Source of the DNA: a bacterium
GTDB taxonomy: Bacteria; AUK180
Length of the DNA stretch: 64,000 bases
Direction: 5' to 3'
Assembly (NCBI GenBank): GCA_023144005.1
Contig: JAGLGN010000006.1
Location: 148,440 to 212,439, forward strand
The notes beneath the pieces are model-generated. The model did not search any database. It had not been told where the DNA came from and saw only the letters and a list, made by a program, of their open reading frames with translations. The position numbers and the translations under genes are program-made. This document shows, in pieces, positions 12,468 through 64,000 of this stretch. How positions within the stretch are numbered: position 1 is the first letter of the stretch; each line of letters begins with the position of its first letter.

Positions 12468-13742
12468 ATGAATATCGGTATTATTATTGGAAGGATTGGT
12501 GATGTTGATGGGGTTGCTCTAGAAACAGAAAAATGGATACAAGTTCTCAAAGGAATGGGGCATAGGATATTTATTATGTCGGGACGATATGCAAGACATA
12601 TCGTCGAACCGGAAGATGAAACACTTGTCCAGATGCTTTCTTTCTTTTCACCTGAATGTGAATGGGAACAAAAAAGAGCATTTTTTCTTCCGAGATTTGA
12701 AGATCTTGATGAGCTTCTTGATCAACTTGAATATTCCTCCAACAGAATTGCTGTTTATATTTTCAAATGGATCCTTACCAACAGGATAGACATACTGCTT
12801 TCTGAAAATGCCTCCACTCTGCCATGTCATCTTTCGATGGGAATGGGTATCAAAAAAGTTGTTAAAAATACAGGCCTCAGAATTGTGTGTCACGATCACG
12901 ATTTTCATTGGGAAAGGGGGGATAGATATAAATCACCGTTTAAAGAAATAAATGATCTTGTTAACGGTACCTTCCCGCTGCTTTCTCCAAATGCCTCCCA
13001 CGCGGTAATAAATACTTATTCAAAAAATACATTGAGGGAAAAATTTGACATCGATGCTACCCTGGTCCCCAATGTAATGGATTTCAATGAACCTTATGCC
13101 GAAATAGATGAATATAACAGGGATATGCTTGATAATATCGGACTGGGAAAGGGGGATATTCCAATTTTTCAAGCCACCAGAATAGTGAGACGAAAGGGAA
13201 TCGGAACGGCAATAGAACTTATTGAACGGATTCAGGACACTAAAGTGAAATTGATAATAACAGGGACTTATGCCGATGACGAGAGATATGGATATTACAA
13301 GGAACTAATGCAGCTTGTAAAAGATAAAAATCTTAATGGCCGTGTATTTTTTTCTCGCAACAGAATACTCAGTCATAGAACTCAGTCGCACACGGGGAAA
13401 AAAATATATTCCCTGTCAGATGCTTATGCTCATGCGATAGCCTGCACATATTTCAGCAAATATGAAGGATTTGGAAACGCATTTATCGAGGCGGTACTTG
13501 CGAAGCGCCCTGTTTTTGTAAACAATTATAAGCCTGTGTTCTGGCACGACATAGGTTCCAAGGGTTTTAAAACGGTTATGATCGAGGAAAATAATTTAAC
13601 AGATGCCGCTGTGGATGAAATCTTTAAAATAATACACAGTAAAAAATTAAGAGGGGAAATTGCCGAACATAATTACAAACTTGCTCAAAAGTACTTTTCT
13701 TATGATGTGCTGGAAGAAAAATTAGCAGAACTATTTTACTGA
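12468..13742 (+). CDS. GT-B-fold glycosyltransferase-like protein, paralogue of the N-terminal module of the 14038 gene
   Basis: 424 aa. The C-terminal half resembles a GT4-like Rossmann domain (RIVRRKGIGTAIELIE...). It shares CHDHDFHWERG with NNNHDFYWEGG in the 1390-aa protein. Confidence 0.5.
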   Translation: MNIGIIIGRIGDVDGVALETEKWIQVLKGMGHRIFIMSGRYARHIVEPEDETLVQMLSFFSPECEWEQKRAFFLPRFEDLDELLDQLEYSSNRIAVYIFKWILTNRIDILLSENASTLPCHLSMGMGIKKVVKNTGLRIVCHDHDFHWERGDRYKSPFKEINDLVNGTFPLLSPNASHAVINTYSKNTLREKFDIDATLVPNVMDFNEPYAEIDEYNRDMLDNIGLGKGDIPIFQATRIVRRKGIGTAIELIERIQDTKVKLIITGTYADDERYGYYKELMQLVKDKNLNGRVFFSRNRILSHRTQSHTGKKIYSLSDAYAHAIACTYFSKYEGFGNAFIEAVLAKRPVFVNNYKPVFWHDIGSKGFKTVMIEENNLTDAAVDEIFKIIHSKKLRGEIAEHNYKLAQKYFSYDVLEEKLAELFY

Positions 13743-13749
13743 ACAGGCT

Positions 13750-14022
13750 AGTGTACTGTTCCATAAATACCATAACAATGGCTGAAGCTATTTTGTTACG
13801 GATTCAAGGCGCGAGGAACATCGCATACCCACTGCGGTATGTAAGCGACGAGCAACGCAGAAGACAGGAAAAGAGCTTCAGCCCGAAGGGAATATCAGCT
13901 TTGGTCAATTTCTTTCTCTCTTTTCGTTTATGTACCACTAAGGGTACGCCGCACTCATCGTTCGTTGAGATTGACTCAAATCTAAGCATTCCATTGTTAT
14001 GGTATTTATGGAACCGTACACT
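13750..14022 (+). mobile_element. MITE-like non-coding element with 32-bp terminal inverted repeats, copy A
   Basis: TIRs AGTGTACTGTTCCATAAATACCATAACAATGG / CCATTGTTATGGTATTTATGGAACCGTACACT. The body is about 85% identical to copy B (43638-43910) and to the reverse-oriented copy C (62598-63042). No ORF is conserved beyond nucleotide identity. Confidence 0.6.
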
Positions 14023-19791: not shown

Positions 19792-20016
19792 AGGCCTATA
19801 GAGAAATTAAAAATGGACAATTGACAGTTGACAATTGCAGAGAGAAATGAAGAATGACGCTTCGCAGTGAACCAGCAGACCCAGTGGAACACGATGCGCA
19901 ATGCACCAGGTAGGTGATAAGGTCGTACGTAGAGAGGGATGGATCCTTCGCGTGATAAGCTCAGGATGACAGAACAATATTAATAACATTCAAGGATGTG
20001 TGGAGAATGTTTCCAT

Positions 20017-20132
20017 GTGATTCTAAACATTGCGAAGAGTGTACAATTGCTTCACAATTTTCAACTCTTCGCTTGGAACCTTTACATCGGGACAGACGAA
20101 CGCCTGAAGCGTACGACATGTCCCATATCTTA
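20017..20132 (+). repeat. Second repeat family, copy 1 (hairpin-containing element of about 115 nt)
   Basis: About 85% identical to the reverse complement of 43549-43637 plus 43911-43938. The core CAATTTTCAACTCTTCGCTTGG...CATCGGGACAGACGAACGCC...GCGTACGACATGTCCCATATCTT contains GGGACA...TGTCCC inverted repeats. Confidence 0.45.
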
Positions 20133-20360: not shown

Positions 20361-20922
20361 TTTTTTCCTTTATCATTTATCTCAAAACTAGTGATCTGAT
20401 TCATAAAACAATAAAAGCAGTCTGAAATGTGAAGTGTGAAGTGGTGAAAAGACGGGATGAAATAAAACTGGATCCCACGGTCGCCAACTCCCTCTGGATG
20501 ACACTTTCCACTTCTTTATTTCCTTCCCGCATCCGCTCAACGGGAGCCCGGCAGCGCCGGGCGACCAACCCAAAAGAGTTTTGAACCATTTAAGCGACAT
20601 TGACATTTTTAACGGCAAGAATGAATGGTGGCGAAGCCGAAAATATCCAATTGTCTGAGTGAGCGAAAGCTAACGAGTTTTGGGATTTTAATGAGTGATA
20701 GCCGTGGTGAGTATCGTTGCAAAAAATGACGTGAGAGCAAAAACGGATCAAAACTCAATTAAATAATCTTTATTCAATTGTCAATTTTACATTGACAATT
20801 CAAAGATGATATTCCCTTCGGGTAGATACTCTTTTTATGTCTTCTGCTTTCCTGCGGCTCTCATGCTGAACAAAATAGCATCAGCCATTGTCAATGGATT
20901 TATGAATTAGCTCACTAATAAA

Positions 20923-21414
20923 TTACTTGAATTTCTTAAGCAATGCGCCAAGAAAGGATGCCGGAAGGCCGTTCAGTATCGTATAATTGAAAACCTTATT
21001 CAGGAAATCATCACCCCAGAGGCCGATCTTCAGAAGCGCCATTGAGATGGTGATCAAAACGAATATAGAAAAGATAGCAAGAGCATTTCCGAGATAAGTC
21101 ATGACCTCATCGGCGATAATATCGTACATAAGATCAAAGTACAAGCCAAAAAGAATGATCGCCCAGATATGATTGGAGGGTCCCATTACACCTGTTTTCA
21201 ATACTGCCGCAATGATGCCCAATAGAAATCCTGTGTGCGGGAACACTATGAGCTTACGGGCAAAGAACAGGATACCCAATGCGATAAGCGACAGTATGGC
21301 AGATGAGAACATGACCTCATTACTAAAGAGAAATTCCCCGAGAAATATCTCAACAACACCCCAGAGCAGTCCGAAAACCAATATGCCAAGAAACTTTTTA
21401 GCTAAGGAACTCAT
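20923..21414 (-). CDS. Small polytopic membrane protein, about 5 TM (possibly an ECF-type substrate-capture component)
   Basis: 163 aa, hydrophobic. It overlaps the end of the upstream helicase gene by 17 nt. A QueT-like role is suggested only by queH in the same operon. Confidence 0.4.
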   Translation of the reverse strand: MSSLAKKFLGILVFGLLWGVVEIFLGEFLFSNEVMFSSAILSLIALGILFFARKLIVFPHTGFLLGIIAAVLKTGVMGPSNHIWAIILFGLYFDLMYDIIADEVMTYLGNALAIFSIFVLITISMALLKIGLWGDDFLNKVFNYTILNGLPASFLGALLKKFK

Positions 21415-40601: not shown

Positions 40602-43384
40602 TATTTACCACCGATGCTTCTGATCACTCCGAGGTAATCTTCATGATATTCTTTATTTACGGGGCGGTCATTCAGCAGATCGGGATACCATTTCTGTATG
40701 AACCGCCCGATACGCGAGATCCTTGTATTATCCTTTTTTCCAGAATAGACCGCCCTTTGAAGTTCAAGCAATTCCACAGCAACCCGGCGGCCCGCATCGA
40801 CAAGATCATCGGACAATTGCTCTTTTCTTAATGCCTCTTTGATCGCTTCCATTTTTTCCTCAATCTTCCCGGAGGTTCCGGCAAGTTCGCCTTTTTCCTT
40901 GCTTTCTTTGATATCTTCGGACAATTTTGAGAGTCGTTCCTGCAGTTCCTGCTGCTTATCAGCAGCCTGCTTCACGGCATCGCTCATCCTCTTATTCATA
41001 CCGGAAGAACGGTATTGTTCCATCATTTTCTCCAGATAACTATTGAGTTTCTGCTGATCTTGTGAAAGGGAGTTGAGCTTTTCAAAAAGATTCATTGAGC
41101 TGCCCGAAGAACAAGAGGAGGCATCCATTCTATCCATGAGGACTATCAGTTTATTTAAAAAGATCGCATTGGAATTCTTGAATTGAGAAAAATATCTCTG
41201 CTCCTTTTTCAGGCGGTAATTTTGAAAACTATTGTATGTATTTTGAAAAGAACTGTGAAGCGAGTGGTCGAACATCATCAGGATCGCGGCAAAAGAAGCC
41301 ATCTCATCTTTCATTGCGGCAAGATTCGATTCCGCCCAGCTCTCCATCTCAGGCGTAAAGTGCGACATCACATCAAGAGCGACGGTCTTCTCGACAAGGG
41401 GCGAAAGGTCAGGAGAGCTATTGGAACGGTTGTTCAATTTATCCGCGGAATAATCTTTGAAATCCGATGATAATTTTTTCTTGCTTTGCTCAAAGGTCTT
41501 TTGCTGCATCTTTTGATTCATCTTTGATAATTCATTTCTTGCTTTATCGGGGTCAAGAAGCTTTTCGTCCTCTTTATCAAAACGCGAGAACAGATCAGAT
41601 ACATCGCTCTTGATCTCGTCCAATTTATCGGTTTGCTTCTGTTCTAATTGATCCAATTTCTTTGAAATACGGGCAGCGTCTAACCCTTTTTTATATTCTT
41701 CGAGCTGTTTGATGATCCTCTCTAATTCCCAGGATATCTTCTCAAGATCGGCCTGTGATACCTTTTGTGACGATGGGCGGGAATCCAATCCCTGCTCCAT
41801 TTTCTGCCGCAGCAGATCCAGCACTTCTTTATTCAAAAGTTCTTTCATGAGCTCCTGCTGCCTTTTTACCTGCTCGATGATCTTCTTTTCAACCTTCAGT
41901 TCTTCCAGTGCTGCCTCCAAGTATTCCATGGTCTTCTCTATCGTTTCGCCACGCTTCTGGATCTCTTGTGTAAGTTCGTTGCTCTTTGAAGTTTTCGGAT
42001 CGAATTTCTTGTCACCGCCATCCAGCGGCTCCGCCTTCATCATCTCAAGTTCCCCGAAAAGCGTACTGCCGACCTCCTCCCAAATATCCTGCAAAGCATT
42101 ATTATCCATAAGAGAAAGAGTGAGCTTTCTTGAGCGGCCTTCCTTTCCATAGCCGTCAAAAGACCTTATATAGATATAGACGTAGCTGTCTGATATATCC
42201 GTTATTCTTTCCAACGGGATCATGTATTTCCCGGAGAGAGACAGCGAACCCTTATTCACTCTCAACTCCCTTATGCCGGCTATTCCTCCGCTTTCCTTCT
42301 CCCAGGCAAATTCAACCCTGTATATCCCATCGGGATCTGTAATTTCGTACCGCAATTCATAATCTCCATAAAAACCGTCCAGTTCAACATCTTCAAGCGG
42401 TTTCGTTATCTTTACCGATGGACCTGAATTGGGCGCGATGGGGATCCTTTTATAGAACTTCCCTGCAAGATAGCCGCTCTTATAAAAGTAAGCGAGAAAC
42501 TCACAGTCATTGAAGGGAATGATGGAAGAGGCAAGCAGATCAGAGCGGTTGCCATCCACGGTCAGAACAAAGGTATCATAATCCCCCTGCGGCTCGATCT
42601 TGTAATGCAGCGTTTCACCCTCAAGCGGTATTCTGTCCCCGGGTTCCAAATTCCTGCCTTGTCTTTTGATATGGAAGTGCGAGCGGAAACTAAGGGGAAG
42701 TATGAATTCCACAGGGATCTCCTTGCTTCCGCCTTTCCAGGTAACGATCAGAGGAGAGCGCTCTATCGCTGGAAGCTCGATCTCTGAATTATTAACACTT
42801 TGCTTAAATAATGGGTCCCTCCCGTCAGAGATAGAGATTTCAATGGCATCGCCATAGGTATGGATATTCATTCTTACTGGATCGGCTGTGAAGCGGTTAT
42901 ACACCAGTCTGTCGGGTGATATCCGCACAAAGGAAGCGGTGGAAAGACCGGTATTCATCCCTGTCAGCAGCCAAGAGAACGCGATGATGAAAAATATCTG
43001 AATATATACCGCTCTGAACAACCAGAAAGGCGGGATGACCGGAGAAGTCCTCTGCATGAGCAGGTCATAGAGTTTCAATATCTCAAAATCGACGGCACCG
43101 GCGTCAGCACCGCTTTTCAATATCAGCGCGTGATATAATCTGTTCCCTTCATCACCGCAATCCTTTTTGATCATTCTCAATACTCCCCGATCCGAAATAT
43201 ACAGAAGAATAATTAATATCAACGGTATCAGAATAAGAAATACGGGCAATCGCGCCCAGATCACGATCGCAAGAAGAATAGGAAGAAGGCAGAGGGATAT
43301 CAGAAGGCCGCGTACAAATTGATACATTCTGAAATGATTGAGAAGCTCCTTTGCTTTTCTCCCGATGCCAGTGTGCTGTTTCAT
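40601..43384 (-). CDS. Membrane-anchored protein with N-terminal TM helices, a beta-rich middle domain and a long C-terminal coiled coil (unknown function)
   Basis: 927 aa. Its stop overlaps the trmFO start by 1 nt. The final 500 aa show heptad-like charged repeats. Confidence 0.6.
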   Translation of the reverse strand: MKQHTGIGRKAKELLNHFRMYQFVRGLLISLCLLPILLAIVIWARLPVFLILIPLILIILLYISDRGVLRMIKKDCGDEGNRLYHALILKSGADAGAVDFEILKLYDLLMQRTSPVIPPFWLFRAVYIQIFFIIAFSWLLTGMNTGLSTASFVRISPDRLVYNRFTADPVRMNIHTYGDAIEISISDGRDPLFKQSVNNSEIELPAIERSPLIVTWKGGSKEIPVEFILPLSFRSHFHIKRQGRNLEPGDRIPLEGETLHYKIEPQGDYDTFVLTVDGNRSDLLASSIIPFNDCEFLAYFYKSGYLAGKFYKRIPIAPNSGPSVKITKPLEDVELDGFYGDYELRYEITDPDGIYRVEFAWEKESGGIAGIRELRVNKGSLSLSGKYMIPLERITDISDSYVYIYIRSFDGYGKEGRSRKLTLSLMDNNALQDIWEEVGSTLFGELEMMKAEPLDGGDKKFDPKTSKSNELTQEIQKRGETIEKTMEYLEAALEELKVEKKIIEQVKRQQELMKELLNKEVLDLLRQKMEQGLDSRPSSQKVSQADLEKISWELERIIKQLEEYKKGLDAARISKKLDQLEQKQTDKLDEIKSDVSDLFSRFDKEDEKLLDPDKARNELSKMNQKMQQKTFEQSKKKLSSDFKDYSADKLNNRSNSSPDLSPLVEKTVALDVMSHFTPEMESWAESNLAAMKDEMASFAAILMMFDHSLHSSFQNTYNSFQNYRLKKEQRYFSQFKNSNAIFLNKLIVLMDRMDASSCSSGSSMNLFEKLNSLSQDQQKLNSYLEKMMEQYRSSGMNKRMSDAVKQAADKQQELQERLSKLSEDIKESKEKGELAGTSGKIEEKMEAIKEALRKEQLSDDLVDAGRRVAVELLELQRAVYSGKKDNTRISRIGRFIQKWYPDLLNDRPVNKEYHEDYLGVIRSIGGK

Positions 43385-43417
43385 AAATACGATGACAGTC
43401 GTTCACGTGGCGAACGA

Positions 43418-43447
43418 TGTGTGAAGTGTGATGTGTGATGTGTAAAG
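43418..43447 (+). repeat. Tandem heptamer repeat TGTGA(A/T)G x4 (C-free)
   Basis: TGTGTGAAG TGTGATG TGTGATG TGTAAAG immediately upstream of the 927-aa gene. A related TGTGAAG x2-3 array lies at 20428-20451. Confidence 0.5.
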
Positions 43448-43548
43448 CGAGGAGAACAAGGCAATATCCACATCCGTAATCGGAAAATCAATATTTCGTT
43501 TAACACTGTAATTTTCCTGTTCCAATCATATCACGCCGGATCCCAATC

Positions 43549-43938
43549 AAGATATGGGACATGTCGTACGCCATCGGCGTTCGTCTGTCCCGATGTAAAA
43601 ATACCAAGCGGAGAGTTGAAAATTGCGAAGCAATACGAGTGTTCTGATTCATAAAGACGGTAACAATGGCTGATGCTATATTGATCCGTATTCTAGGCGC
43701 GAGGAATGGTGCATACCCAGCACGGTATGTAAGCGACGAGCAACGCAGAAGACGGAAAAAGAGCTTCAGCCCGAAGGGAATATCATCTTTGATCAATTTC
43801 TTCCTCTCTCTTCGCTTATGTACCACTAAGGGTACGCAACGCTCATTGTTCGTTGGAATTGACTCAAACCTAAACATTCCATTGTCACTGTATGTATGAA
43901 TCAGAGCACTAAACTCTTCGCAATATATAAAATCACAC
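43549..43938 (-). repeat. Second repeat family, copy 2 (reverse orientation), carrying a nested MITE copy
   Basis: The flanks 43549-43637 and 43911-43938 match 20017-20132 in reverse complement. The 273-bp element sits between them at the position corresponding to 20038-20044. Confidence 0.45.
43638..43910 (+). mobile_element. MITE-like element copy B (273 bp, diverged TIRs)
   Basis: TIRs AGTGTTCTGATTCATAAAGACGGTAACAATGG / CCATTGTCACTGTATGTATGAATCAGAGCACT. The body is about 85% identical to copy A. Confidence 0.6.
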
Positions 43939-43948
43939 GATAACATAC

Positions 43949-44506
43949 TTAACGCTCCTCAGAAAATACAAATGCTTCAAAGGTCAGAAGTTCCGTTGAA
44001 GGGTCTTTCCAGGCCTCGGCCGGAAGGCCGGCTTTACCGAAGCACAGATGAGAAAGAAAGGTCGGAAGATCCCAACCCGTTTCTGTGGCCACCTGAGGGA
44101 GAAATACTCCCTGGCTGAAACCTTTTTTCACCAGCACTCCATGCTGGCCCAATATGATATCTTTGTATGAATTTACTTTTTTCATTGGTGACAATACCGA
44201 TAATTCCACGGTCAGGTCAGTAAGCTCCTCAGGGCGGACATCAGGAAAACGGGGATCGCCCAATGCTGACTCAACGGATGTTTCCAATACGGATTTCCAC
44301 AATGGATCGCGGGCGATGATAAAGCCGATGCAACCTCTTAATTCCCCCGCTTTCTTCAAAGTGGTAAAAACGCCGTATGGCTTACCGTACTTATTTTTCA
44401 ATTCCAAAGACATCTTCATATACTCATTGTTCTTGAGATAAAAAACAATGCTGGAACGGGCAAGGGATAACAATTCTTTCTGGTCGGCGGAGGAGAAATT
44501 TATCAT
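43949..44506 (-). CDS. AMMECR1-domain protein (AmmeMemoRadiSam system protein A-like)
   Basis: 185 aa with the LRGCIGF motif. Confidence 0.8.
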   Translation of the reverse strand: MINFSSADQKELLSLARSSIVFYLKNNEYMKMSLELKNKYGKPYGVFTTLKKAGELRGCIGFIIARDPLWKSVLETSVESALGDPRFPDVRPEELTDLTVELSVLSPMKKVNSYKDIILGQHGVLVKKGFSQGVFLPQVATETGWDLPTFLSHLCFGKAGLPAEAWKDPSTELLTFEAFVFSEER

Positions 44507-55178: not shown

Positions 55179-58100
55179 TCAGTCGTCGCCCAATGTTATT
55201 TCAAAGTCTTTTAGAAATTGATCCAGGTTATTCTTCTCGACCTCTGTGGCATCGGCTTTCAGGGATTTGAATATTTCAATACCACTATTACCCTCTGACC
55301 GGTAAAGGTACAGGCCATAGGTCATCCGCGTCATGAACGCATCCTCATTTCTTTCATATTTCCAACTTATTGAGTAGGCCCGTTTTACCAGATCGGCAGC
55401 TTCCGGCAACCTGCCGTTCATGATCAGATATTGGGCGTATGCGCTCATATGGTACATTGCATTGAATTCAAGGGAGAATTTTTCCGCATTTTCAATAGCC
55501 TTAACGAAAGTCATCTCAGCCTCTTCTTTTCGGCCTAAGCGATGATATGCTTCTGCGATATTTCCAAGAGTATAGCACAGACCCTCTGGGTCTTCCAGTT
55601 TTTTTACCAGTATCAATTTCTTCTTATATGTCTCGATCGCCTTGAGATAGTCATTTTTCATCGCATACATCGTACCGATATTCCCGATCGCCTTCATCAG
55701 GATCCTGACATTCCCGATCTCAAGAGCGCTGTCTCTTGTTCTTTCATAGGTTTTCAGGGCTTTGTCATAGTCCTTTTGATGAAAATATACACCGCCAAGG
55801 TTCAAAGACATGACGGAAATATTCTTCTGATCGCCGACCTGAAGCGCCAGCTCCAGTGCTTTCTCAAAATGTTCCTCCGCCAAAGACATATTTCCCCTCG
55901 TATAATGAATGGTACCGATATTCCCCAGGGCAATGCTCTCGGCATCGATCGCCTGCGCTGAACGGGAGATCTCCAATGCTTTCTTGTACTGGGCCATGGC
56001 TCTGCTGATCTTACCTTCCTTGAGAAGGATCAATCCGTTATTGACGCATAAGGCGCTTCGCTCTGTCTTCCTGCGCTTACGGGAAAGCTGAGGAATAATC
56101 GCCAAGGCATTTTTCATTGCCTGCCTGGCAGCGGGGAAGTTCAGAAGATAATATTCTATCAAACCCGTGATCCGGTATGAGGAAATAAGCTTTTTATAAT
56201 CTTTTGCTTTCAGAAAATATGCCCTTGCCTGCGCAATTTCTTTTAGCGATTCATCATATTCGCCGAGACGCATAAGTACCCTGCCAAGTATGAAACGTGC
56301 AGCATTGATCTGCTTTTTCTCTCTCGAACGCAATGCGGTCAGGAGGGTCTGCCGACATATCGGAAGTGACTTGCGCCACATTCCCGCGGCGACCATTGTC
56401 GTAAGGTATCTGATCTCCAATTCAAGGGATCGTCTTTTTCCTTTTTCAATTTTCTGCAGCATACTTATCATTTCCAATGCTTCAACATTTCTAAAATTGC
56501 GCGTCAGGTAAGCGATCGCTTTCGGCAGAAGTTCCTTGCTCTTTGAAATATTTCCGCTCAAAAAGCAATGGCGCGCCATTTCGGGAAGATAAGCATTCTC
56601 AAGACCGAATAAACGGAACAAGGCATTGGCGGTCTTGCGGTGCAGTGACTTTCTTTCATCGCCTAATTGAAGAGAATACGCACTTTCTCTGAGCATGCCG
56701 GAAACAAAACCTATTTCATCCGTCTCGTGGTTCAATGTCCAGATCCCCGCCGTCTCGCCTTCCGCGACTATCGCAGAAATATTTTCTGATCTTCCGGATA
56801 TTTCTCTTAAAAGTCCGACGCTGAATGTGGGGCCCAGTATGGACGCTATTTTCACAAGCCGGTTCAATTTTAAAGGCAATGAATCGATGCGGGAAATAAG
56901 CAGATGCGTCAGGTCATTGGGCAGATCTTTCAGATCGGTTTTTAAAAATATCATGTCCCCCCGCTTCTCCATCAGGGAATTTTCCTTTATAAAGGTTGCC
57001 AATTGCTTTGCGAAAAGCGGATTACCCCTGCTCTTTTTTAGGATCATCTCTACCATCGGCATTGACAGCTCACCTTCGATTATCTGAGAGACCAGGCCGC
57101 GAAGCTCGTCTTTGGAAAAAGGCGAAAGTTCTATTTCTTCATATAGCTCTTCGCGCAAAGCATCAAAATCCGTCCCATCCCTCGATGCCATAATAAGGGC
57201 AAATTTCTCATTTTGCATATTTACCGTAAGATTATTGGCCAGAGCGCGGGATTCTTCGGAATACCAGCTGACATCTTCACATATCAATACCATCCCTTCG
57301 CTTTGTGATATGATCTTACAGAATGTCTTTATGGCCATTCCGATCGCTTTGTGGCGCATTTCAGGAGAAAGTCCTGAAACGGATCTTCCGCCGTCGCCAA
57401 GCGCCAGAAAGTACTCTAAGAACCCCTGAAGATGGGGAAATTCTTCCCATAGAGGATTATCTCGGGTCTTCTCTCTCAATGTTGAAAAATAAGAATTGAA
57501 TAATTCAAGCCTTCCTTCGGGGCTATTCTCCATTCTGATCCCGACAAAGCTCTTTATCGCCTCAGAAAAGGGGACCAGGCCTTCTGCTCCCATTTCATTT
57601 CCCCTTATCACAAGATGCCTGTAACCGCTATCCGTTACAGCTTTCATCCAAAGTGTTGTCTTTCCGATACCTGCAGGGCCGGAAATAAAAAAGGGCGAAT
57701 AAAACCCCTTTGCCGTTGAAATGAAGATATACTTCTGCAGTTCTTTTAATTCCGATTGCCTGCCGAAAAATAGGGCATCGGATACAGTGGTAATCACATT
57801 CCCTCTCAGCCGCATCAATTTTGAGATATGATATTTCCCTTCTTTTCCTTTGAAATCAGCGATTTTATAATATTTTGTGTCGAATATGGGGTCAAAGTGT
57901 TTCAAGGCGGACTGTGGAAGTAGTATATTACCCTTGGACAAGGACATTATCCGCGCTGAAAGGTTAGCTGTATCTCCCAAGACCGTATATGCCGAGCGGC
58001 GGGCGCTTCCCACAAAGCCGCAGAACGCCAGCCCGGAAGCGAGGCCGATGGCAACACCGAAATCTTTCGAGGCCTTCAGCGCCATTGTTCCCGCATTCAC

Positions 58101-58922
58101 GACATCCTGTTCATATGCGGAGGGAGCGCCGAACACAGCAAGAATATGCGGACCCTTATCATTAAAGAACAATCCGTTGAAATAGCCGCCGTAACGCTGT
58201 ATCAGCTCCTTTATACTTCGCGCGGTATCAAAGATCGAATCGATCGGAGCCTCGGAAGAAAGGCCGATAAATGCGGTGATCACATGACGGAACTCTCCCT
58301 TGACCCTCATTGTCATGATCTTGGACGGGATGAAGATCCGCTGCGCTTCATAGGGCGGGGAAGAGATCTTGTTTTTTTGATGTGGCATCTCGCGTTTTAT
58401 GCCTGCTGCGCTCTTATGAATACGGTACTCGCCGGGAGGGCATTCCGCCTGAAGTTCACAGGCCCTGAGTATGGCATCTCCGAAAAAAGAATATGACGGA
58501 TTATCCTTGCCGCCGAAGATTCTCCATTTCACCGTACCGGCGGCCGCACCCTGTTTTATCTTCAATAAAAAACTCTGGCTTTCAAAGGACTGCTCTTTGC
58601 TTTTTATCATTTCCTTATTTATGCTCTTGCAGAGCTCTGGCAGATCCGCTTTGCACGGAAGGGGGAAGATCGCGGTGAACGCGTCGCCGGCAAATTCGGA
58701 AACGAATCCACCCTGATCATACACCACCTTCATTAATTTTGTAAAAACACGGTTTATAACCTGAGAAAGGAATTCCGCGCCAGTGCGGCCTTGCTTTAGC
58801 AGGGCCTCTGTCATTGATGTAAATCCTGAAATATCCGCGAATATTACCGCCGCATCAAGTTCTCCTTCGGCATTATCTCTTTTGTACTGATCTAGTATGA
58901 AGCGGGGTATTAATTTTCTCAT
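55179..58922 (-). CDS. STAND-type signalling protein: tandem class-III nucleotidyl cyclase homology domains + AAA/NB-ARC ATPase + TPR repeats
   Basis: 1247 aa. Cyclase motifs are AVIFADISGFT and FAGDAF, with a second cyclase-like domain around residues 200-370. Walker A is FISGPAGIGKTTL. The C-terminal 500 aa are TPR-like. Confidence 0.75.
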   Translation of the reverse strand: MRKLIPRFILDQYKRDNAEGELDAAVIFADISGFTSMTEALLKQGRTGAEFLSQVINRVFTKLMKVVYDQGGFVSEFAGDAFTAIFPLPCKADLPELCKSINKEMIKSKEQSFESQSFLLKIKQGAAAGTVKWRIFGGKDNPSYSFFGDAILRACELQAECPPGEYRIHKSAAGIKREMPHQKNKISSPPYEAQRIFIPSKIMTMRVKGEFRHVITAFIGLSSEAPIDSIFDTARSIKELIQRYGGYFNGLFFNDKGPHILAVFGAPSAYEQDVVNAGTMALKASKDFGVAIGLASGLAFCGFVGSARRSAYTVLGDTANLSARIMSLSKGNILLPQSALKHFDPIFDTKYYKIADFKGKEGKYHISKLMRLRGNVITTVSDALFFGRQSELKELQKYIFISTAKGFYSPFFISGPAGIGKTTLWMKAVTDSGYRHLVIRGNEMGAEGLVPFSEAIKSFVGIRMENSPEGRLELFNSYFSTLREKTRDNPLWEEFPHLQGFLEYFLALGDGGRSVSGLSPEMRHKAIGMAIKTFCKIISQSEGMVLICEDVSWYSEESRALANNLTVNMQNEKFALIMASRDGTDFDALREELYEEIELSPFSKDELRGLVSQIIEGELSMPMVEMILKKSRGNPLFAKQLATFIKENSLMEKRGDMIFLKTDLKDLPNDLTHLLISRIDSLPLKLNRLVKIASILGPTFSVGLLREISGRSENISAIVAEGETAGIWTLNHETDEIGFVSGMLRESAYSLQLGDERKSLHRKTANALFRLFGLENAYLPEMARHCFLSGNISKSKELLPKAIAYLTRNFRNVEALEMISMLQKIEKGKRRSLELEIRYLTTMVAAGMWRKSLPICRQTLLTALRSREKKQINAARFILGRVLMRLGEYDESLKEIAQARAYFLKAKDYKKLISSYRITGLIEYYLLNFPAARQAMKNALAIIPQLSRKRRKTERSALCVNNGLILLKEGKISRAMAQYKKALEISRSAQAIDAESIALGNIGTIHYTRGNMSLAEEHFEKALELALQVGDQKNISVMSLNLGGVYFHQKDYDKALKTYERTRDSALEIGNVRILMKAIGNIGTMYAMKNDYLKAIETYKKKLILVKKLEDPEGLCYTLGNIAEAYHRLGRKEEAEMTFVKAIENAEKFSLEFNAMYHMSAYAQYLIMNGRLPEAADLVKRAYSISWKYERNEDAFMTRMTYGLYLYRSEGNSGIEIFKSLKADATEVEKNNLDQFLKDFEITLGDD

Positions 58923-59048
58923 CTGCTTCTCATTTCATCCACAATTAGAATATACCGCTTTTTTGCCGAATTTGCAAAATATGATGACCGTACAACCCTA
59001 GTGTACTGTAAATGCTTGAAATAATCGCAGTAATCATTATAATAAAGG

Positions 59049-59882
59049 ATGAATACAATACTTCTATTGGGCTCAACCGGACTTCTGGGAAATGATCTCC
59101 GCAAAAAGGCGGAAGGCCGATTCAATATCATTGCGCCCTCATCATCGGAATGTGATCTTCTGAAACCGGGGAGCGTCGCGGAATTCATTGAGAGAATTTC
59201 GCCCGATATTATTATCAATTCCGCCGCTATGACCAATGTGGATGACGCTGAATTATACAAAGAAAAAGCAATGCAGATCAATGCGTACGCTGTCAGAGAG
59301 ATCGCCAAAGCGGCCAAGGAAAAGAATATTCTCTTTGTGCATATCTCCACTGATTATGTATTCAACGGGACCTCTGAAGAACCCTATTCCGAGGAAGACC
59401 CGCGCAATGCCGCCAACTTCTACGGCTACACCAAGGTAATAGCGGAAGAATTCATACAAGAGACAGCGGAGGATATGCTGATATTCAGGGTGGCTTGGCT
59501 TATCGGAAAGAGAAGAAAAACATTGTTCGATATGATCCGGGAGTTCGACGGAAAACATCTGAAGATCATCGATGATCAATGGGGAGATCCCACATTTTCT
59601 TTCTGGGCAGCTGAGATCATCCTGGAGTCTATTGAAAAAAGGATCCCCCGGGGCATTTACAATCTCACTTCATCCGCAAATATAACAAGATTTGAATTCG
59701 CGAAAAAATTAAAGGAGAAGCTGGGACTGAAATTTGAACTCAGCGCGATCGGATCAACCGCTCTGAAACGCCCCGCATTGCGCCCACGGGCGACATCTCT
59801 GATCAATCAAAAACTCAGCAATGCCCTGAAAAGAAAACTCCCCTCATGGGAAGAGCAGTTAGATCTGTTTTTACAGGGATAA
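59049..59882 (+). CDS. dTDP-4-dehydrorhamnose reductase-like SDR (RmlD family)
   Basis: 277 aa with LLLGSTGLLG Rossmann start and a YxxxK region (YGYTK). Confidence 0.7.
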   Translation: MNTILLLGSTGLLGNDLRKKAEGRFNIIAPSSSECDLLKPGSVAEFIERISPDIIINSAAMTNVDDAELYKEKAMQINAYAVREIAKAAKEKNILFVHISTDYVFNGTSEEPYSEEDPRNAANFYGYTKVIAEEFIQETAEDMLIFRVAWLIGKRRKTLFDMIREFDGKHLKIIDDQWGDPTFSFWAAEIILESIEKRIPRGIYNLTSSANITRFEFAKKLKEKLGLKFELSAIGSTALKRPALRPRATSLINQKLSNALKRKLPSWEEQLDLFLQG

Positions 59883-59887
59883 TGCCG

Positions 59888-62029
59888 ATGAACAAGGAGC
59901 TTGGGAAGCCATCCGAGGTATTTAACGAAGATAAGGTAAAAAAGATCCTTATCGACACCATTCAGAATATGAGGGGAATAGTCCTTACAAAAAGCGATAA
60001 TGAACAGATCGCAATGGCGGTGCAGTTCCTTTTAAAATTCCTCGGCCCCAAACACCGTATGGACTATCATCCCGCAGCGCTTCACTCGATCAGAGTGGCT
60101 ATTAAATGCGTTACTTACTACAAGATATACGACAAAGAGATGATAATGGCGGCGCTTTTGCATGATGTCGTGGAGGATTCCAAGGTCTCTATTGACGAGG
60201 TCAGAAAGAAGTTCGGCTACAATGTCGCTTATCTGGTGGACGGCCTTACAAAATATAAATTCGCCGAAGAAGATGTCTCAAAGATGGTAAAAGAAGCGAC
60301 TTCCCTGATCAAGCTGATCCTTTTTGCGCAGAAAGATATCAGGATCATCCTAATTAAATTCATGGACCGGATAGACAATATCGAGACCATCAGAGCGACG
60401 CCGAATATACAGAAAATCGTAAAAACAAAAGAAACCTTCGACATATACATCCCCATCGCGGACGCCTTGAATATGTGGAAAGTGAAGATGTACCTGGAGA
60501 ACCTCGCTTTCAAGATCCAATACGGTGAATTCGCCCATCTGGTTTACGAGGAATTCTACAATTTCAAGAGCGAGAAATTCAAAGGGACCAATTCGGAAGC
60601 GTATATCAAGGGAAATATCATTAAGAAGATCGCGAGGGAATTAAAAAAGAGAAAGATAAAGATCATGAATCTCAAGTACCGCGAGAAGAGCCTTTACGGC
60701 ATACATAAAAAAATGCAGAAGGTCGCCACCTCCATCGATCTGATCTATGATCTTTTCGGGATCAAGGTCATTGTCGACAGAGAGATCGAATGTTATCAGG
60801 CGCTGGAAGCTATACAGAAGATATTTCCGACATTCATCCGAGTGAAGGATTACATTAAGAATCCGAAGAATAACGGATATAAATCAATTCATCTGGACAT
60901 TCAGGATCCTAAATTGAAGATATGGATAGAATTGCAGATCAAAACAGATGAAATGGAGGCTTATAATGAATACGGGCCTGCGGCACACCCCCTTTACAAG
61001 GGGTGGGAATTTCATTCCTATCAATTCCAGGACATCGGAAAGGTGTATGAGATGCTTGAGAATGTTCTGAAATCCAGAAGATTGAATCCCGAGGTCCTTG
61101 ATATCAATATCCTCACTCCCGCCGGTGACAAGATTACCCTTCCTTACGGCTCAACCGTTCTTGACCTCGCATACCGTATTCACTCCGACATCGGATATCA
61201 TTGCAAACAGGCCAAGATCAACAGGGTCAATATTCTCGGCGAATTGATCGTTTCCCCTGAAGAAATACTGCATGACGGTGACCGGATCGAGATCATAGTG
61301 GATCCGGAAACACATCCCGCGATCGACTGGCTCTTACATGTAAGAACACATGATGCCTTTAAATCAATTAAGAACTGGCTGTATCATTATTATAACTCCG
61401 AAGAAATCGGGAATGCGTTGTCGCGGTCCATTGCCGATCTCGAGAAAAAAGGGAGAAATTCTCCAATATACTCCGTTGTTAAAGGCATTTACAAAGATAT
61501 TTATCCCGCTGACCTGAAGAAGATCAAAAAGGATCCCGTAAAAACAAAGCTCCCTTTAACGGCCATGTATAAGGTTGTAGTGCCAAAGACCGGTGAAGAG
61601 ATCGTTGATTTCAAATTGGCGCTTTGCTGCAGCCCGCTTCAGGGAGAGCCGATAGTCGGGATCAGATCCAAGGACGGAATGGTAATACACAAAGAGAACT
61701 GCCTTACCGCTGGTGCAAAAGCGATACCGATCAGATGGGCCACCGACCATAATGCAAAGAAATGGAAGACAAAGATCTATTTCTCTTTAGAGCAGAAAAC
61801 AGACCGCAGGAAGGCACAGAAGAAATTAGAAAAGATCTTAAAGATGGCGCTAAGCGGATATGAGGGGTATTATGAAAATCTCGAGATCCAATTTTCATCC
61901 GTGGACGAACAAAAGACCTCTTCGGGGTATATTTTCATTGATGTGAATACTTCCAGGGTCACAAGAAAAATAAAGGAGGCTTTCCTGGATGATAAAAGCA
62001 TCTCCGGAGTTCTTCCGAACTGCTGGTAA
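59888..62029 (+). CDS. Bifunctional (p)ppGpp synthetase/hydrolase (RelA/SpoT homologue)
   Basis: Start at MNKELGK, with AGGGA 8 nt upstream. Contains an HD hydrolase domain (LLHDVVED), a synthetase domain (YKSIHLDI), then TGS and ACT-like C-terminal domains. Confidence 0.9.
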   Translation: MNKELGKPSEVFNEDKVKKILIDTIQNMRGIVLTKSDNEQIAMAVQFLLKFLGPKHRMDYHPAALHSIRVAIKCVTYYKIYDKEMIMAALLHDVVEDSKVSIDEVRKKFGYNVAYLVDGLTKYKFAEEDVSKMVKEATSLIKLILFAQKDIRIILIKFMDRIDNIETIRATPNIQKIVKTKETFDIYIPIADALNMWKVKMYLENLAFKIQYGEFAHLVYEEFYNFKSEKFKGTNSEAYIKGNIIKKIARELKKRKIKIMNLKYREKSLYGIHKKMQKVATSIDLIYDLFGIKVIVDREIECYQALEAIQKIFPTFIRVKDYIKNPKNNGYKSIHLDIQDPKLKIWIELQIKTDEMEAYNEYGPAAHPLYKGWEFHSYQFQDIGKVYEMLENVLKSRRLNPEVLDINILTPAGDKITLPYGSTVLDLAYRIHSDIGYHCKQAKINRVNILGELIVSPEEILHDGDRIEIIVDPETHPAIDWLLHVRTHDAFKSIKNWLYHYYNSEEIGNALSRSIADLEKKGRNSPIYSVVKGIYKDIYPADLKKIKKDPVKTKLPLTAMYKVVVPKTGEEIVDFKLALCCSPLQGEPIVGIRSKDGMVIHKENCLTAGAKAIPIRWATDHNAKKWKTKIYFSLEQKTDRRKAQKKLEKILKMALSGYEGYYENLEIQFSSVDEQKTSSGYIFIDVNTSRVTRKIKEAFLDDKSISGVLPNCW

Positions 62030-63204
62030 CGGCTCGCTGATTTTCCTTGATACTCCTTTCGTATCTGCCTTTACAACAAGGTTAAATGGTGTTTCTTCGG
62101 GCAATTTCTCATCTTTCAATCTATACTTCGGTAGAGGGGATAAACTGGAAGATGTTGAGCGTAACTGGGAGATTTTGCGCGAATATCTTGATTTTAACGG
62201 CAAGATCGTCTTGCCGCAGCAAATACACTCATCTACGATAAAATATGTTCCTGAAAATCTCGAACAAGGCGGTATCAACCATATTCCTCAATGTGATGGA
62301 TTGATAACGGACAAAAAAGGGGTCCTCACAGGAGTAATGTTCGCCGATTGCCTTCCGGTGCTTATCTGGGGTACGAGATATGCCGCTATTCTGCATGCCG
62401 GATGGCGGGGACTCGCGTCCGGGATCATTGGAAATGGGGTACGCGAACTTATCTCCAAGGGAGAAAACCCATCAGAACTCAATGCGGCCTTGGGACCGTG
62501 TATAGCCGCGGAAGATTATGAAGTAGGTCAAGAAGTTGTCCGTGCCTTCACCGACGCCGGGCTTGAAAATGCCGTTGAACGGTCAGGCAGCAGCTATAGT
62601 GTACTATTCCATATATACCATATCAATGGAATGTTTAGATTTGAGTCAATTCCAACGAACAATAAGCGCAGCGTACCCTTTGTGGTCCGTAAGCGAAGAG
62701 AGAGGAAGAAATTGACCAAAGATGATATTCCCTTCGAGCTGAAGCTCTTTTTCTGTCTTCTGCGTTGCAAGTGCTCTGATTTAAAATCCGCTGACAATGG
62801 AATGTTTAGATTTGAGGCAATTCCAACGAATAATGAGCACGGCGTACCCTTGGTGGTCCGTGAGCGAAGAATGAGGAAGAAATTGACCAAAGATAAGATT
62901 CCCTCTGGGCTGAATCTCTTTTGCCGTCTTCTACGTTCCTCGTCCCTTACATACCGCCTGCGGGTATGCAGCGCTCCTCGCTCCTTGAATACGACACAAA
63001 ATAGTTTCAGCCATTGTTGTGGTATTTATGGAACAGCACACTCGAGCATCTCTTGTCAAAGGTGCTGTCTTTCAATTGATCGAATTCAAAGTTGCCAATA
63101 TCTATTTTGAAAGGTATAATACATACGGACAGAGTGAGAAATTTTTCTCTTACCGAAGGGACGGAGCGAAGGTAGGAGAGATGCTGATGTTTTTTATCCT
63201 ATAG
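61989..63204 (+). pseudogene. pgeF: pgeF/yfiH (DUF152 purine nucleoside phosphorylase / peptidoglycan editing factor) interrupted by a 445-bp element
   Basis: The 5' part (61989-62597) aligns to YfiH up to ...AFTDAGLENAVERSGSSY (ADCLPV, HAGWRGL). The 3' part (63043-63204) encodes RASLVKGAVFQLIEFKVANIYFERYNTYGQSEKFFSYRRDGAKVGEMLMFFIL, matching the YfiH C-terminus (ETFFSYRRD). Removing 62598-63042 joins the two in frame. Confidence 0.7.
62598..63042 (-). mobile_element. MITE-like element copy C (composite, 445 bp, reverse orientation) inserted in pgeF
   Basis: Outer TIRs AGTGTACTATTCCATATATACCATATCAATGG / CCATTGTTGTGGTATTTATGGAACAGCACACT. An internal partial body is followed by a second B-type start-TIR (AGTGCTCTGATTTAAAATCCGCTGACAATGG) near 62775, then a complete body. 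Confidence 0.65.
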
Positions 63205-63563: not shown

Positions 63564-63595
63564 TGGTATCTATCTATATTCCATAGATCAGAACA

Positions 63596-64000
63596 CTATC
63601 TTCCGGAATATATCTTATTCTTCAATCTTTCGAGTTTTAATTTGAAATCAGAATCCGTTATTCTGAGTTTATCGATCTTTCTTACGGCGTTCAATACGGT
63701 AGTGTGGTCCTTTCCACCGAATTCATTCGCGATAGACGGATAGGAAAGCTTCAAGAGTTTTTTCATGAAATACATGGCGACCTGCCGTGGAATAAGAACA
63801 TTCTTTGTGCGTCTTGTGGAGGTTATTTCCGAAAGCCGGATATCAAAGAATGCGGAGGTTTGCGTCATTATCGAATCAATATTAAGTACACTTTGAGGGA
63901 TAAGCGAACACAATAGGGATTTGATCTGATCGTCAGAAAATTGTTTGCCCTCGATCTTCTGTTTCATGCTTATCCTTTTCAATGCGGTGATAAGGTCCCT
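63596..64000 (-). CDS. dnaA: Chromosomal replication initiator DnaA, C-terminal part (domain IV). The N-terminus lies beyond the window end.
   Basis: The frame is open to the window edge. LIPRQVAMYFMKKLLKLSYPSIANEFGGKDHTTVLNAVRKIDKL matches DnaA DNA-binding domain IV (PRQVAMYL...GGRDHTTV). Confidence 0.8.
   Translation of the reverse strand, partial: RDLITALKRISMKQKIEGKQFSDDQIKSLLCSLIPQSVLNIDSIMTQTSAFFDIRLSEITSTRRTKNVLIPRQVAMYFMKKLLKLSYPSIANEFGGKDHTTVLNAVRKIDKLRITDSDFKLKLERLKNKIYSGR

Follow-up and report, generated by a model that had tools for sequence, protein, structure and literature searches.

A MITE-like repeat family of Atribacteria-type genomes and the probable loss of pgeF through its insertion

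The pgeF gene of the 64-kb window, that is, the whole stretch of DNA analyzed, is interrupted by a composite non-autonomous element (62598–63042, forward strand). The orthologous site is empty in the sister lineage, the insertion is fixed in the lineage of the window, and the reading frame is blocked. The gene is very probably a pseudogene, produced when this MITE-like element was inserted in the ancestor of the window lineage, an event which would have followed the separation from the lineage of GCA_023133295.1. The element contains no transposase gene and is found in dozens of copies per genome, and therefore it was presumably moved in trans by a transposase; the pgeF copy is a rearranged composite of 1.6 units. 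PgeF edits peptidoglycan and is dispensable; losing it to a repeat insertion in one uncultured lineage would be ordinary genome decay and matters little as far as the gene is concerned. A somewhat better lead is the repeat family, which is undescribed, abundant, and confined, within the scans, to a few Atribacteria-type genomes.

The two parts of pgeF and the intact orthologue

The start of pgeF (61989) overlaps the end of relA/spoT (59846–62029). According to the ORF list and the translation, the 5′ part (61989–62597, forward strand) comprises codons 1–203 and ends with ...VERSGSSY. The translated 3′ part (63043–63204, forward strand) begins with RASLVKG... and consists of 53 codons and a stop. 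Each part matches PF02578 (Cu-oxidase_4) of Pfam, the former at profile positions 1–173 (E 2.6e-45) and the 53-aa piece of the latter, searched alone, at positions 188–236 (E 1.1e-7). When joined without 62598–63042, they give a protein of 256 aa which covers positions 1–236 of the 238 in a single stretch (E 5.8e-58), and its alignment with the YfiH-family structures 1rv9, 1t8h, 1z9t, and 7f3v is unbroken across the junction.

The sister genome GCA_023133295.1 encodes an uninterrupted PgeF orthologue, also of 256 aa (P0001), which shows 93% identity to the fused protein and is located in the same gene order as in the window, relA–pgeF–DUF498–dnaA (locus L001). The 5′ part is 95% identical to P0001 and matches, at 100% identity, the first 203 aa of P0002, the product of the other version of the interrupted gene; the 3′ part aligns with the C terminus of P0001. 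The 445-nt element is missing from the orthologous site in L001–L003. In the relA/pgeF region an empty site was found in the sister lineage only, at 95.8% nucleotide identity, and the protein search with the restored PgeF gave no near-identical matches other than the interrupted form and the 93% identical orthologue of the sister lineage. A preliminary description of this DNA had claimed that pgeF is split at exactly these positions, that precise removal restores a full-length frame, and that the fragment from 63043 is the YfiH C-terminus. All three claims agree with the end-to-end profile match, the separate match of the 3′ piece, and the orthologue of equal length in the sister genome.

Between the window and L001, the dN/dS of pgeF is 0.20, which is above the range of its neighbors (0.02 to 0.14; relA 0.065, DUF498 0.024, leuS 0.043), yet far below 1. 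The 3′ part reaches 0.42, based on few sites. A divergent second pgeF may exist outside the 64-kb window.

The insertion was found in assemblies of different samples and assemblers, drawn from ENA, NCBI, and Logan. In detail, L004, L005, and L114 (a 1.44-Mb scaffold) span the entire insert with both junctions, and L115, L117, L119, and L120 reach its right junction. Every window-lineage assembly reaching the junction carries the filled gene; an empty allele on window-lineage flanks was found neither among them nor in the protein collection. The window and L004 differ at four positions over 11.1 kb, and because all four fall inside the element, short-read assemblies may misreport its exact sequence.

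Structure of the insert and fate of the reading frame

The insert carries terminal inverted repeats at both ends (AGTGTACT...AGCACACT). Its length is 445 nt in the window; five other assemblies of this lineage have 444 nt, as they carry a single C at 62957–62958 (forward strand) where the window has CC. The first module (62598–62769, forward strand) comprises the outer left inverted repeat (62598–62629) and core positions 1–172, with an 88% match to positions 1–171 of copy A, a family member described below. It is followed by a complete 273-nt unit (62770–63042, forward strand), recognized by pattern search and by alignment with 29 other full-length copies. This unit starts at an end-like site at 62770 with a left inverted repeat of its own (62770–62800; AGTGCTCTGATTTAAAATCC...CAATGG) and ends with the outer right inverted repeat (63011–63042). 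The two cores are 87% alike and the two left repeats about 60%. The break at about 172/173 is also present in L027, L030, L042, and L048. An origin of the 445 nt by plain tandem duplication was rejected, since the 172 nt of one copy are succeeded by a complete unit whose own left inverted repeat belongs to another subtype.

The junction of the 5′ part with the insert falls between two codons, and the family consensus, read in this orientation and frame, has only one stop. In the 444-nt version (five of six assemblies), both parts of pgeF are in the same frame, and the only in-frame stop between them is a TGA of the element consensus (62986–62988, forward strand); it ends translation, giving P0002, which has 332 aa and terminates in ...LLAP*. 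In the 445-nt version of the window, the 5′ ORF reads through the entire element, the extra C shifts the frame, and the 3′ part is entered out of frame with a stop at 63110, so that the ORF has 373 aa. The earlier statement that the 5′ ORF ends at 62597 is consequently replaced. The arithmetic of 445 nt with the parts in frames 0 and 1 is valid for this assembly and is not a general property, because the other five have 444 nt and one frame. Synthesis would thus stop at the TGA in the majority version and, after the frameshift, at 63110 in the version of the window; in neither would the last 53 residues of PgeF be made as part of the protein, and therefore pgeF is most probably a pseudogene of recent origin. 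This was one of the two possibilities raised in the preliminary description, and it is favored by the sister-only empty site, the lineage-wide insert, the frame blocked in both versions, and the raised dN/dS.

Four other explanations were weighed against this one. It is quite unlikely that pgeF still functions with the element read through as an in-frame insertion of the RPE (Rickettsia palindromic element) kind, the stop or frameshift being an error of repeat collapse. The majority insert of 444 nt is a multiple of 3 and only one TGA short of a read-through product, and the differences between assemblies are all within the element. In addition, the codon-boundary entry, orientation, and frame are those of a family copy in the threonine aldolase gene ltaE. 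That copy is in frame (273 nt, i.e., 91 codons) and adds 91 aa; the ORF with its insert is intact in L016 and L062, L061 represents the empty site, P0192 and P0191 are the products with and without the insert, and the dN/dS of 0.075 in the host part between the two carriers indicates that purifying selection persists. However, the TGA of pgeF is present in all six assemblies covering the position, equals the family consensus, and is a normal stop in this genome (e.g., in the gene ending at 13742); the insert of 148 aa is large, and the gene has a higher dN/dS than its neighbors. The ltaE copy is the sole documented in-frame case, and the pgeF copy is not open in the manner of an RPE. A very small chance is given to pgeF being made as two polypeptides that reassemble into an active enzyme. 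An ATG at 63028, provided by the right inverted repeat 15 nt before the junction, opens an ORF of 58 aa (63028–63204, forward strand) in frame with the 3′ part, and this ORF, which matches PF02578, was predicted by gene callers in L005 and L115, but no Shine-Dalgarno-like sequence precedes the ATG and dN/dS is at its highest in the 3′ part.

The second possibility of the preliminary description was that the element is precisely removed, either from the DNA of a subpopulation or, like an intron, from the transcript. This is highly improbable, even though exact removal restores the full-length frame and the pgeF copy left no duplication. Neither the assemblies nor the protein collection contain an empty allele with window-lineage flanks, and no Rfam family, group I and II introns included, was matched even at E ≤1. 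Moreover, compensatory changes in the 30-copy alignment occur only between the inverted repeats and not in the core, and other copies are intergenic, in both orientations. Finally, many contigs break in the repeat and its internal sequence varies between assemblies, but the likelihood that the interruption is an artefact, with the repeat misplaced in pgeF, is practically negligible, given that assemblies from ENA, NCBI, and Logan agree independently on the junctions and that three of them span the whole insert. The insertional pseudogene is thus the preferred explanation. An intein was also considered and rejected. An intein would be in frame, start with Cys/Ser/Thr, and end with His-Asn before another Cys/Ser/Thr, whereas the translated element ends with ...GTAH in the window and with ...NQNT in the consensus, R being the next residue, and the insert is out of frame in the window.

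The repeat family

The pgeF insert is a member of a MITE-like family with a non-coding unit of 273 nt and inverted ends of 32 nt. The members are short, present in multiple copies, bounded by terminal inverted repeats, devoid of a transposase, and polymorphic for presence and absence, as found in MITEs. Such polymorphism was seen in pgeF (window vs. L001), in ltaE (L016/L062 vs. L061), and between L008 and window position 21398|21399. The family core gave 62 matches in 55 loci, all from two GTDB species, JAGLWT01 and JAIVYW01 "Candidatus Atribacteria," and at least 20 annotated element ORFs bear the locus tag KAI78 of the MAG that contains the window. Most copies are intergenic and some are within genes, with both orientations represented. 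The termini GTG...CAC are invariant, and the ends are in mirror symmetry, with R at position 1 and Y at position 273.

Copy A (13750–14022, reverse strand) is an intergenic member of 273 nt whose 32-nt inverted repeats are 97% complementary, and its 61-aa ORF is P0159 (locus tag KAI78_02910). Copy C (43638–43910, reverse strand), also of 273 nt, is inserted in a second repeat, R2 (43549–43634 and 43910–43949), of which an uninterrupted paralogue is located at 20004–20131. The sister-genome locus L104 was considered as an empty site for copy C and put aside as uninformative, since R2 is missing there and the element has another interior. The junction sequence TAGTGTACT, previously assigned to copies A and C and to 58999, is present in copy A and at 58999, whereas copy C reads ACG|AGTGTTCT. 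A variant of 527 nt (20390–20916, forward strand), which lies 29 nt downstream of tRNA-Ala(CGC), combines another interior with the inverted repeats of the family and its final ~116 nt (20801–20916). The family repeat breaks many contigs, yields spurious 61-aa gene calls, and forms nested composites.

The 61-aa ORF of the element is annotated in more than 25 copies. A protein-coding nature of the family was nevertheless rejected, with non-consensus fractions of 0.075, 0.049, and 0.071 at codon positions 1, 2, and 3 and no excess at the third; a single stop in the 91 codons is also unremarkable for one frame out of six. A structured RNA gene was similarly rejected, as RNAalifold, run on the 30-copy alignment, showed compensatory changes solely between the terminal repeats and none in the core, and Rfam gave nothing. 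The translations of the element gave no hit to Pfam or PHROGs, transposase domains included.

In the search for an autonomous partner, about 0.35 Mb of loci contained no pair of ends around a transposase-sized ORF, no end pairs 0.7–3 kb apart, and no multi-copy large ORFs. Repeated ORFs of 407 aa were discarded as transposase candidates, being an M20 peptidase and a carbamoyltransferase. So was a 5.1-kb end pair in L103, which, as read from its translation, encloses a seryl-tRNA synthetase-like host gene. Metagenome contigs with related ends showed no transposase beside them. The element resembled no plasmid or phage records, and a string search of the literature returned nothing.

Target sites and comparison with known elements

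No direct repeat flanks the pgeF copy, and the sequence gained at the site is exactly as long as the stretch from one inverted-repeat tip to the other. The same equality holds in four comparisons of filled and empty sites, and the ltaE copy likewise has no flanking direct repeats. Among 35 copies, T is found at position −1 in 26 (74%) and A at position +1 in 22 (63%). Nine of the 35 (26%) can be read as TA|GTG...CAC|TA, which consists of the outermost A/T of the apparent repeat plus the flanking T...A; three have TTA/TTA or TAA/TAA flanks and one has CA/CA. Metagenome elements whose repeat agrees with that of the family over its first 26 nt are flanked by TAA/TAA (L074, L078) or TTA/TTA (L086). 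The junctions are TA...TC for the pgeF copy and TA...TG for the ltaE copy, and the respective empty sites lack TA at the predicted position (A|A and C|A). A fixed duplication of 1–4 nt, tried in every register that fits the net insertion, matched at best 57% of the 35 copies, and only L013/L046 (9/12) and L023 (6/8) had longer repeats at their flanks.

A GTG...CAC element of 443 nt with a 2-nt duplication results in the same frame arithmetic as the removal of 445 nt. For this reason, and on account of the TA/TA readings in 9 of 35 copies and the TAA/TTA duplications in relatives, the earlier description of the insertion as TSD-less stands for the pgeF copy, which has no duplication, and is unsafe as a statement of mechanism, where the T...A bias also speaks against it. 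A register shifted by 2 nt, with the target AG kept on the left and two extra bases on the right, reduces the junction mismatches from 3 to 1 in ltaE, but only from 5 to 4 in pgeF and from 4 to 3 in R2; it was rejected, being also at odds with the mirror-symmetric ends.

In the four comparisons of filled and empty sites, the bases closest to the element, up to 2 nt away, differ at 11 of 16 positions, against a background of 5–15%. At the ltaE junction, a nearly invariant Arg codon, AGA, has become GTA. It is conceivable, though doubtful, that the family inserts without duplication, replacing 1–3 bases at each end, and also persists as an RPE-like translated insertion in working enzymes of Atribacterota; the 444-nt copy of pgeF would then be a decayed or mis-assembled in-frame insertion. 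If the odd junctions stem from the chemistry of insertion and did not arise by mutation afterwards, the family would offer a natural model for studying duplication-free transposition with inverted-repeat ends.

IS630/Tc1-mariner elements duplicate TA, and the IS5 groups and PIF/Harbinger duplicate TNA/TWA. The family resembles them in its T/A flank bias, its GTG...CAC termini, and the TAA/TTA duplications of its relatives. It differs from these families in that the empty sites of pgeF and ltaE lack TA at the predicted position and no transposase of theirs is linked to the family ends. IS200/IS605 with the PATEs, IS110/IS1111, and IS607 insert without duplication and have no long terminal inverted repeats. 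The agreement with the no-duplication inserters IS200/IS605, IS110/IS1111, and IS607 lies in the net insertion equal to the element length and in the lack of direct repeats at pgeF and ltaE. IS200/IS605 requires a conserved left flank of 4–5 nt, whereas in the family the left 4–5 nt are not conserved and the flank is biased only at position −1. Like IStrons and group I introns, the pgeF insert interrupts an ORF that precise removal restores; unlike them, the family has inverted-repeat ends, many intergenic copies, both orientations, and no Rfam match at the gathering score or at E ≤1.

The Rickettsia palindromic elements, as far as they are described through the citation of Ogata et al. (2000, 2002) in PMC10969869, are palindromic repeats translated in frame, similarly to the ltaE copy. 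On the contrary, the present family shows no homology to them, belongs to another phylum, and has one in-frame case with the pgeF copy not open, and its codon-position variability shows no protein selection on the element's own ORF. The family resembles bacterial MITEs such as Correia, ERIC, RUP, and Nezha, with their small size, inverted repeats, dozens of copies, and no transposase. It departs from them in having no consistent target-site duplication in 35 copies and no cognate insertion sequence in the scanned loci. Several MITEs have been reported to contain a short ORF of unknown meaning (PMC10969869), and the family has one too.

Insertion in pgeF and its empty site

The pgeF gene consists of a 5′ part (61989-62597, + strand), which encodes 203 residues of the YfiH/PgeF type ending in ...VERSGSSY, and a 3′ part (63043-63204, + strand) with the final 53 codons, separated by an insert of 445 nt (62598-63042, + strand) which starts with AGTGTACTATTCC and ends with GGAACAGCACACT. 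When position 62597 is joined to 63043, a protein of 256 aa is obtained, which matches Pfam PF02578 in a single stretch (positions 1-236 of 238, E 5.8e-58); the separate pieces cover positions 1-173 (5′) and 188-236 (3′). The alignment with solved YfiH-family structures is also unbroken over the junction. Thus, exact excision of the insert restores the full-length gene, as proposed in the preliminary description, but the 5′ ORF, said there to end at 62597, is in fact open through the entire insert up to 63110 (373 aa).

A comparison with the closest genomes had also been proposed, and the search with the fused protein retrieved an uninterrupted orthologue (P0001) of exactly 256 aa with 93% identity, located in GCA_023133295.1 (JAGLWT01) and two further assemblies, where the gene order relA, pgeF, DUF498, dnaA is as in the window. 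The DNA identity of this sister lineage to the window is 95.8%, with a dS of about 0.13-0.27 over the genes compared. The same query retrieved P0002 (332 aa), whose first 203 residues are identical and whose remainder is element sequence. In the window's own lineage (flanks 99.9% identical), all assemblies that reach a junction carry the insert: it is spanned as a whole in L004, L005, and L114 (a 1.44-Mb scaffold), and its right junction is reached in L115, L117, L119, and L120. No protein identical to the restored PgeF was on record in this search. Because all junction-reaching assemblies of the lineage are carriers, the sister holds an empty orthologue, and the restored protein is not on record, the insertion is real, younger than the split of the two lineages, and apparently fixed in that of the window.

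The repeat family and its composite forms

The insert belongs to a repeat family with a basic unit of 273 nt and 32-nt terminal inverted repeats (consensus left repeat AGTGTTCTGATTCATAAATACGATGACAATGG), which is undescribed as far as the literature was searched. Two plain units, copies A (13750-14022) and C (43638-43910), lie in the window in opposite orientation to the pgeF copy, together with several remnants. A scan of the core against one genome per species gave 62 matches in 55 loci, only from two MAGs, JAGLWT01 and JAIVYW01 ("Candidatus Atribacteria"); the window belongs to a third MAG (locus tags KAI78), as the identity of the copy A ORF with protein P0159 shows. The element showed no similarity to plasmid and phage records and no match to introns or other RNA families in Rfam, and its translations had no match in Pfam and PHROG.

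The pgeF copy comprises positions 1-172 of one copy followed, from 62770, by a complete unit; its two outer repeats are a matched pair. Simple duplication is ruled out as its origin, since the second unit opens with a separate left repeat that belongs to another subtype. The break at ~172/173 recurs in left-left-right forms (L027, L042, and L048), in left-right-right forms (L009, L037, L046, and L058), and in a complete nested pair of 545 nt (L030). This recurrence suggests that the composites would have arisen when elements inserted into other copies and one of the repeated parts was later lost.

Longer variants keep the family ends around a different interior, namely one of 527 nt (20390-20916), placed 29 nt downstream of tRNA-Ala(CGC), and one of about 640 nt in the sister genome (L001:11137-11778). 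The latter separates DUF498 from dnaA; at this place, all that is left in the window is a 26-nt remnant of the right end (63573-63597, ...GATCAGAACACT). Short elements with the same inverted repeats have unrelated interiors with abundant GTGAAGTGTGA / CACTTCACAC-type runs (window 43370-43637, L033:898-1201, and L025:2999-3292), which indicates several non-autonomous families with one common set of ends. At 58999-59016, AGTGTACTGTAAATGC resembles the left repeat minus 5 internal nt and would be a solo end; the sister has 142 nt of unrelated sequence at this site (L001:6881-7023). The two genomes also differ by 3 kb at 55179-58922, where the window encodes a 1247-aa AAA_16/TPR/guanylate-cyclase protein and the sister only a 210-aa guanylate-cyclase gene (L001:6191-6823).

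Copy C is hosted by a second repeat family, R2, of at least 128 nt (43549-43634 and 43910-43949; also 20004-20131 on the opposite strand). The combination of R2 and the enclosed element is found again, with the same junctions (GAGTTT before, CGTATTGC after), at several loci across the three genomes (e.g., L019, L042, L058, L007, and L054), and the two seem therefore to have spread as a unit.

Target sites and junctions

The insertion had been described as free of a target-site duplication. Indeed, none is found at the pgeF copy (GCTAT before, CGAGC after), and in four filled/empty comparisons (pgeF; ltaE, the low-specificity threonine aldolase gene; the R2 that holds copy C, compared with the paralogue at 20004-20131; and L008 against window 21398/21399) the filled site exceeds the empty one by the distance from one repeat tip to the other. 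This is true of the pgeF copy, but it may not hold for the mechanism. In an unbiased survey of ends only GTG...CAC was invariant, the first position being A in ~80% and G in ~18% of copies and the last T in ~75% and C in ~20%. Among 35 independent copies, T precedes the element in 26 and A follows it in 22. This bias can be read as the signature of a TA duplication (TA-GTG...CAC-TA), but both sides are TA in only 9 of the 35; three have TTA/TTA or TAA/TAA, one has CA/CA, and the best register for a duplication reaches an agreement of ≤57%. Other small elements, with TAA or TTA on their flanks, have the initial 26 nt of the repeat (GTGNTCTGATTCATAAATACGRTGAC) as their end; they lie in metagenome contigs that are unrelated, some being G+C-rich (L074:8331-, L086, L097, L078, L092, L079, L090, L096, L083/L101, and L095/L103). 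Clean three-base duplications are seen in L074 and L078 (TAA/TAA) and L086 (TTA/TTA); L092 reads TTA/TAA. In our reading of these sequences, the family may descend from a TA/TWA-targeting transposon type, with the pgeF copy retaining half a duplication at best (TA...TC). The frame argument cannot tell the two readings apart, since the same length is left by excision of 445 nt and by that of 443 nt together with one copy of a 2-nt repeat.

At the four compared junctions (pgeF 62596-62597/63043-63044, ltaE L016:1288-1289/1563-1564, R2 43635-43637/43911-43913, and L008), 11 of the 16 bases lying no more than 2 nt from the element are not those of the empty site, far more than the background of 5-15% would give. 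The altered bases are the one to three touching the element; T stands at -1 in all four filled sites and A at +1 in all four empty ones.

Fate of the interrupted genes

The 445-nt length, with the halves in different frames, is correct for the window but not for L004, L005, L114, L115, and L120, where the insert has 444 nt (one C fewer at 62957/62958) and both halves share one frame. Translation of this majority version ends at 62986-62988, a TGA belonging to the element consensus, and the product is P0002. The additional C of the window changes the frame, so that this TGA is bypassed and the 3′ part is read out of register. The final 53 residues are lost in both versions. Window and L004 differ at four positions over 11.1 kb (three substitutions and one indel), all within the element (62598-63042 vs. 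L004:10610-11053), which calls for caution with assemblies of this repeat; the differences would be due either to assembly errors caused by the repeat or to gene conversion between copies.

The preliminary description had left the choice between a recent pseudogene and an element removed at the DNA or RNA level. Removal is unsupported, as the restored protein is not on record and the element has no intron match in Rfam; the ends are not those of an intein either. In a 30-copy alignment, compensatory changes were seen between the terminal repeats only. A 61-aa "hypothetical protein" (MFRFESIPTNNECGVP...LLAP) is called in >25 copies (P0129-P0168), but it lacks a codon-position signature, and such variability offers no evidence for a real gene. 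Within the DNA loci examined, the search for a transposase partner was negative. With the insert apparently fixed in its lineage, the site empty in the sister, and the last residues lost either way, the interrupted pgeF is most likely a young insertional pseudogene produced by a MITE-like repeat (miniature inverted-repeat transposable element) in an uncultured Atribacteria-type lineage, which is ordinary biology; the features of interest in the family are its irregular junctions and the translated in-frame ltaE copy.

For pgeF, the comparison of window and L001 gives a dN/dS of 0.20 (0.42 in the 3′ part, with few sites), against 0.065 for relA, 0.024 for DUF498, and 0.043 for leuS, values that would fit a recently relaxed constraint. 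The right repeat provides an ATG at 63028 in frame with the 3′ part, where gene callers start a 58-aa ORF; no ribosome-binding motif precedes it. A promoter-like site within the 3′ fragment (63092-63120; TTGCCA, 17 nt, TATAAT; 11/12), ~90 nt upstream of the DUF498 gene, could, judging by its consensus match only, maintain expression of that gene despite the insertion.

Plain 273-nt copies are also found in ltaE, in the orientation and frame of the pgeF copy (L016:612-1928 of JAIVYW01, element 1290-1562; L062:3001-4308; L055:4563-5278), and the ORF remains open (439/435 aa). The empty allele (P0191, 344 aa; L061:81-1115) differs by exactly 91 codons. A third genic copy (L014:976-1248) interrupts a PTS EIIA-like gene (PF00359; P0171), and an ORF that begins inside the element crosses the right repeat and continues as the C-terminal part of the gene. 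Both cases were found via their open frame, so the frame shared with pgeF is not independent evidence.

The ltaE ORF with the insert is intact in two or three lineages. Between carriers, the host part shows 25 synonymous and 7 non-synonymous differences and the insert 2 and 5, respectively; the host-part dN/dS of 0.075 indicates that the gene was kept under purifying selection after the insertion, similarly to what has been described for host genes of Rickettsia palindromic elements (review PMC10969869). Next to the junction, both carriers have GTA (Val) in place of an Arg codon (AGA) that is nearly invariant.
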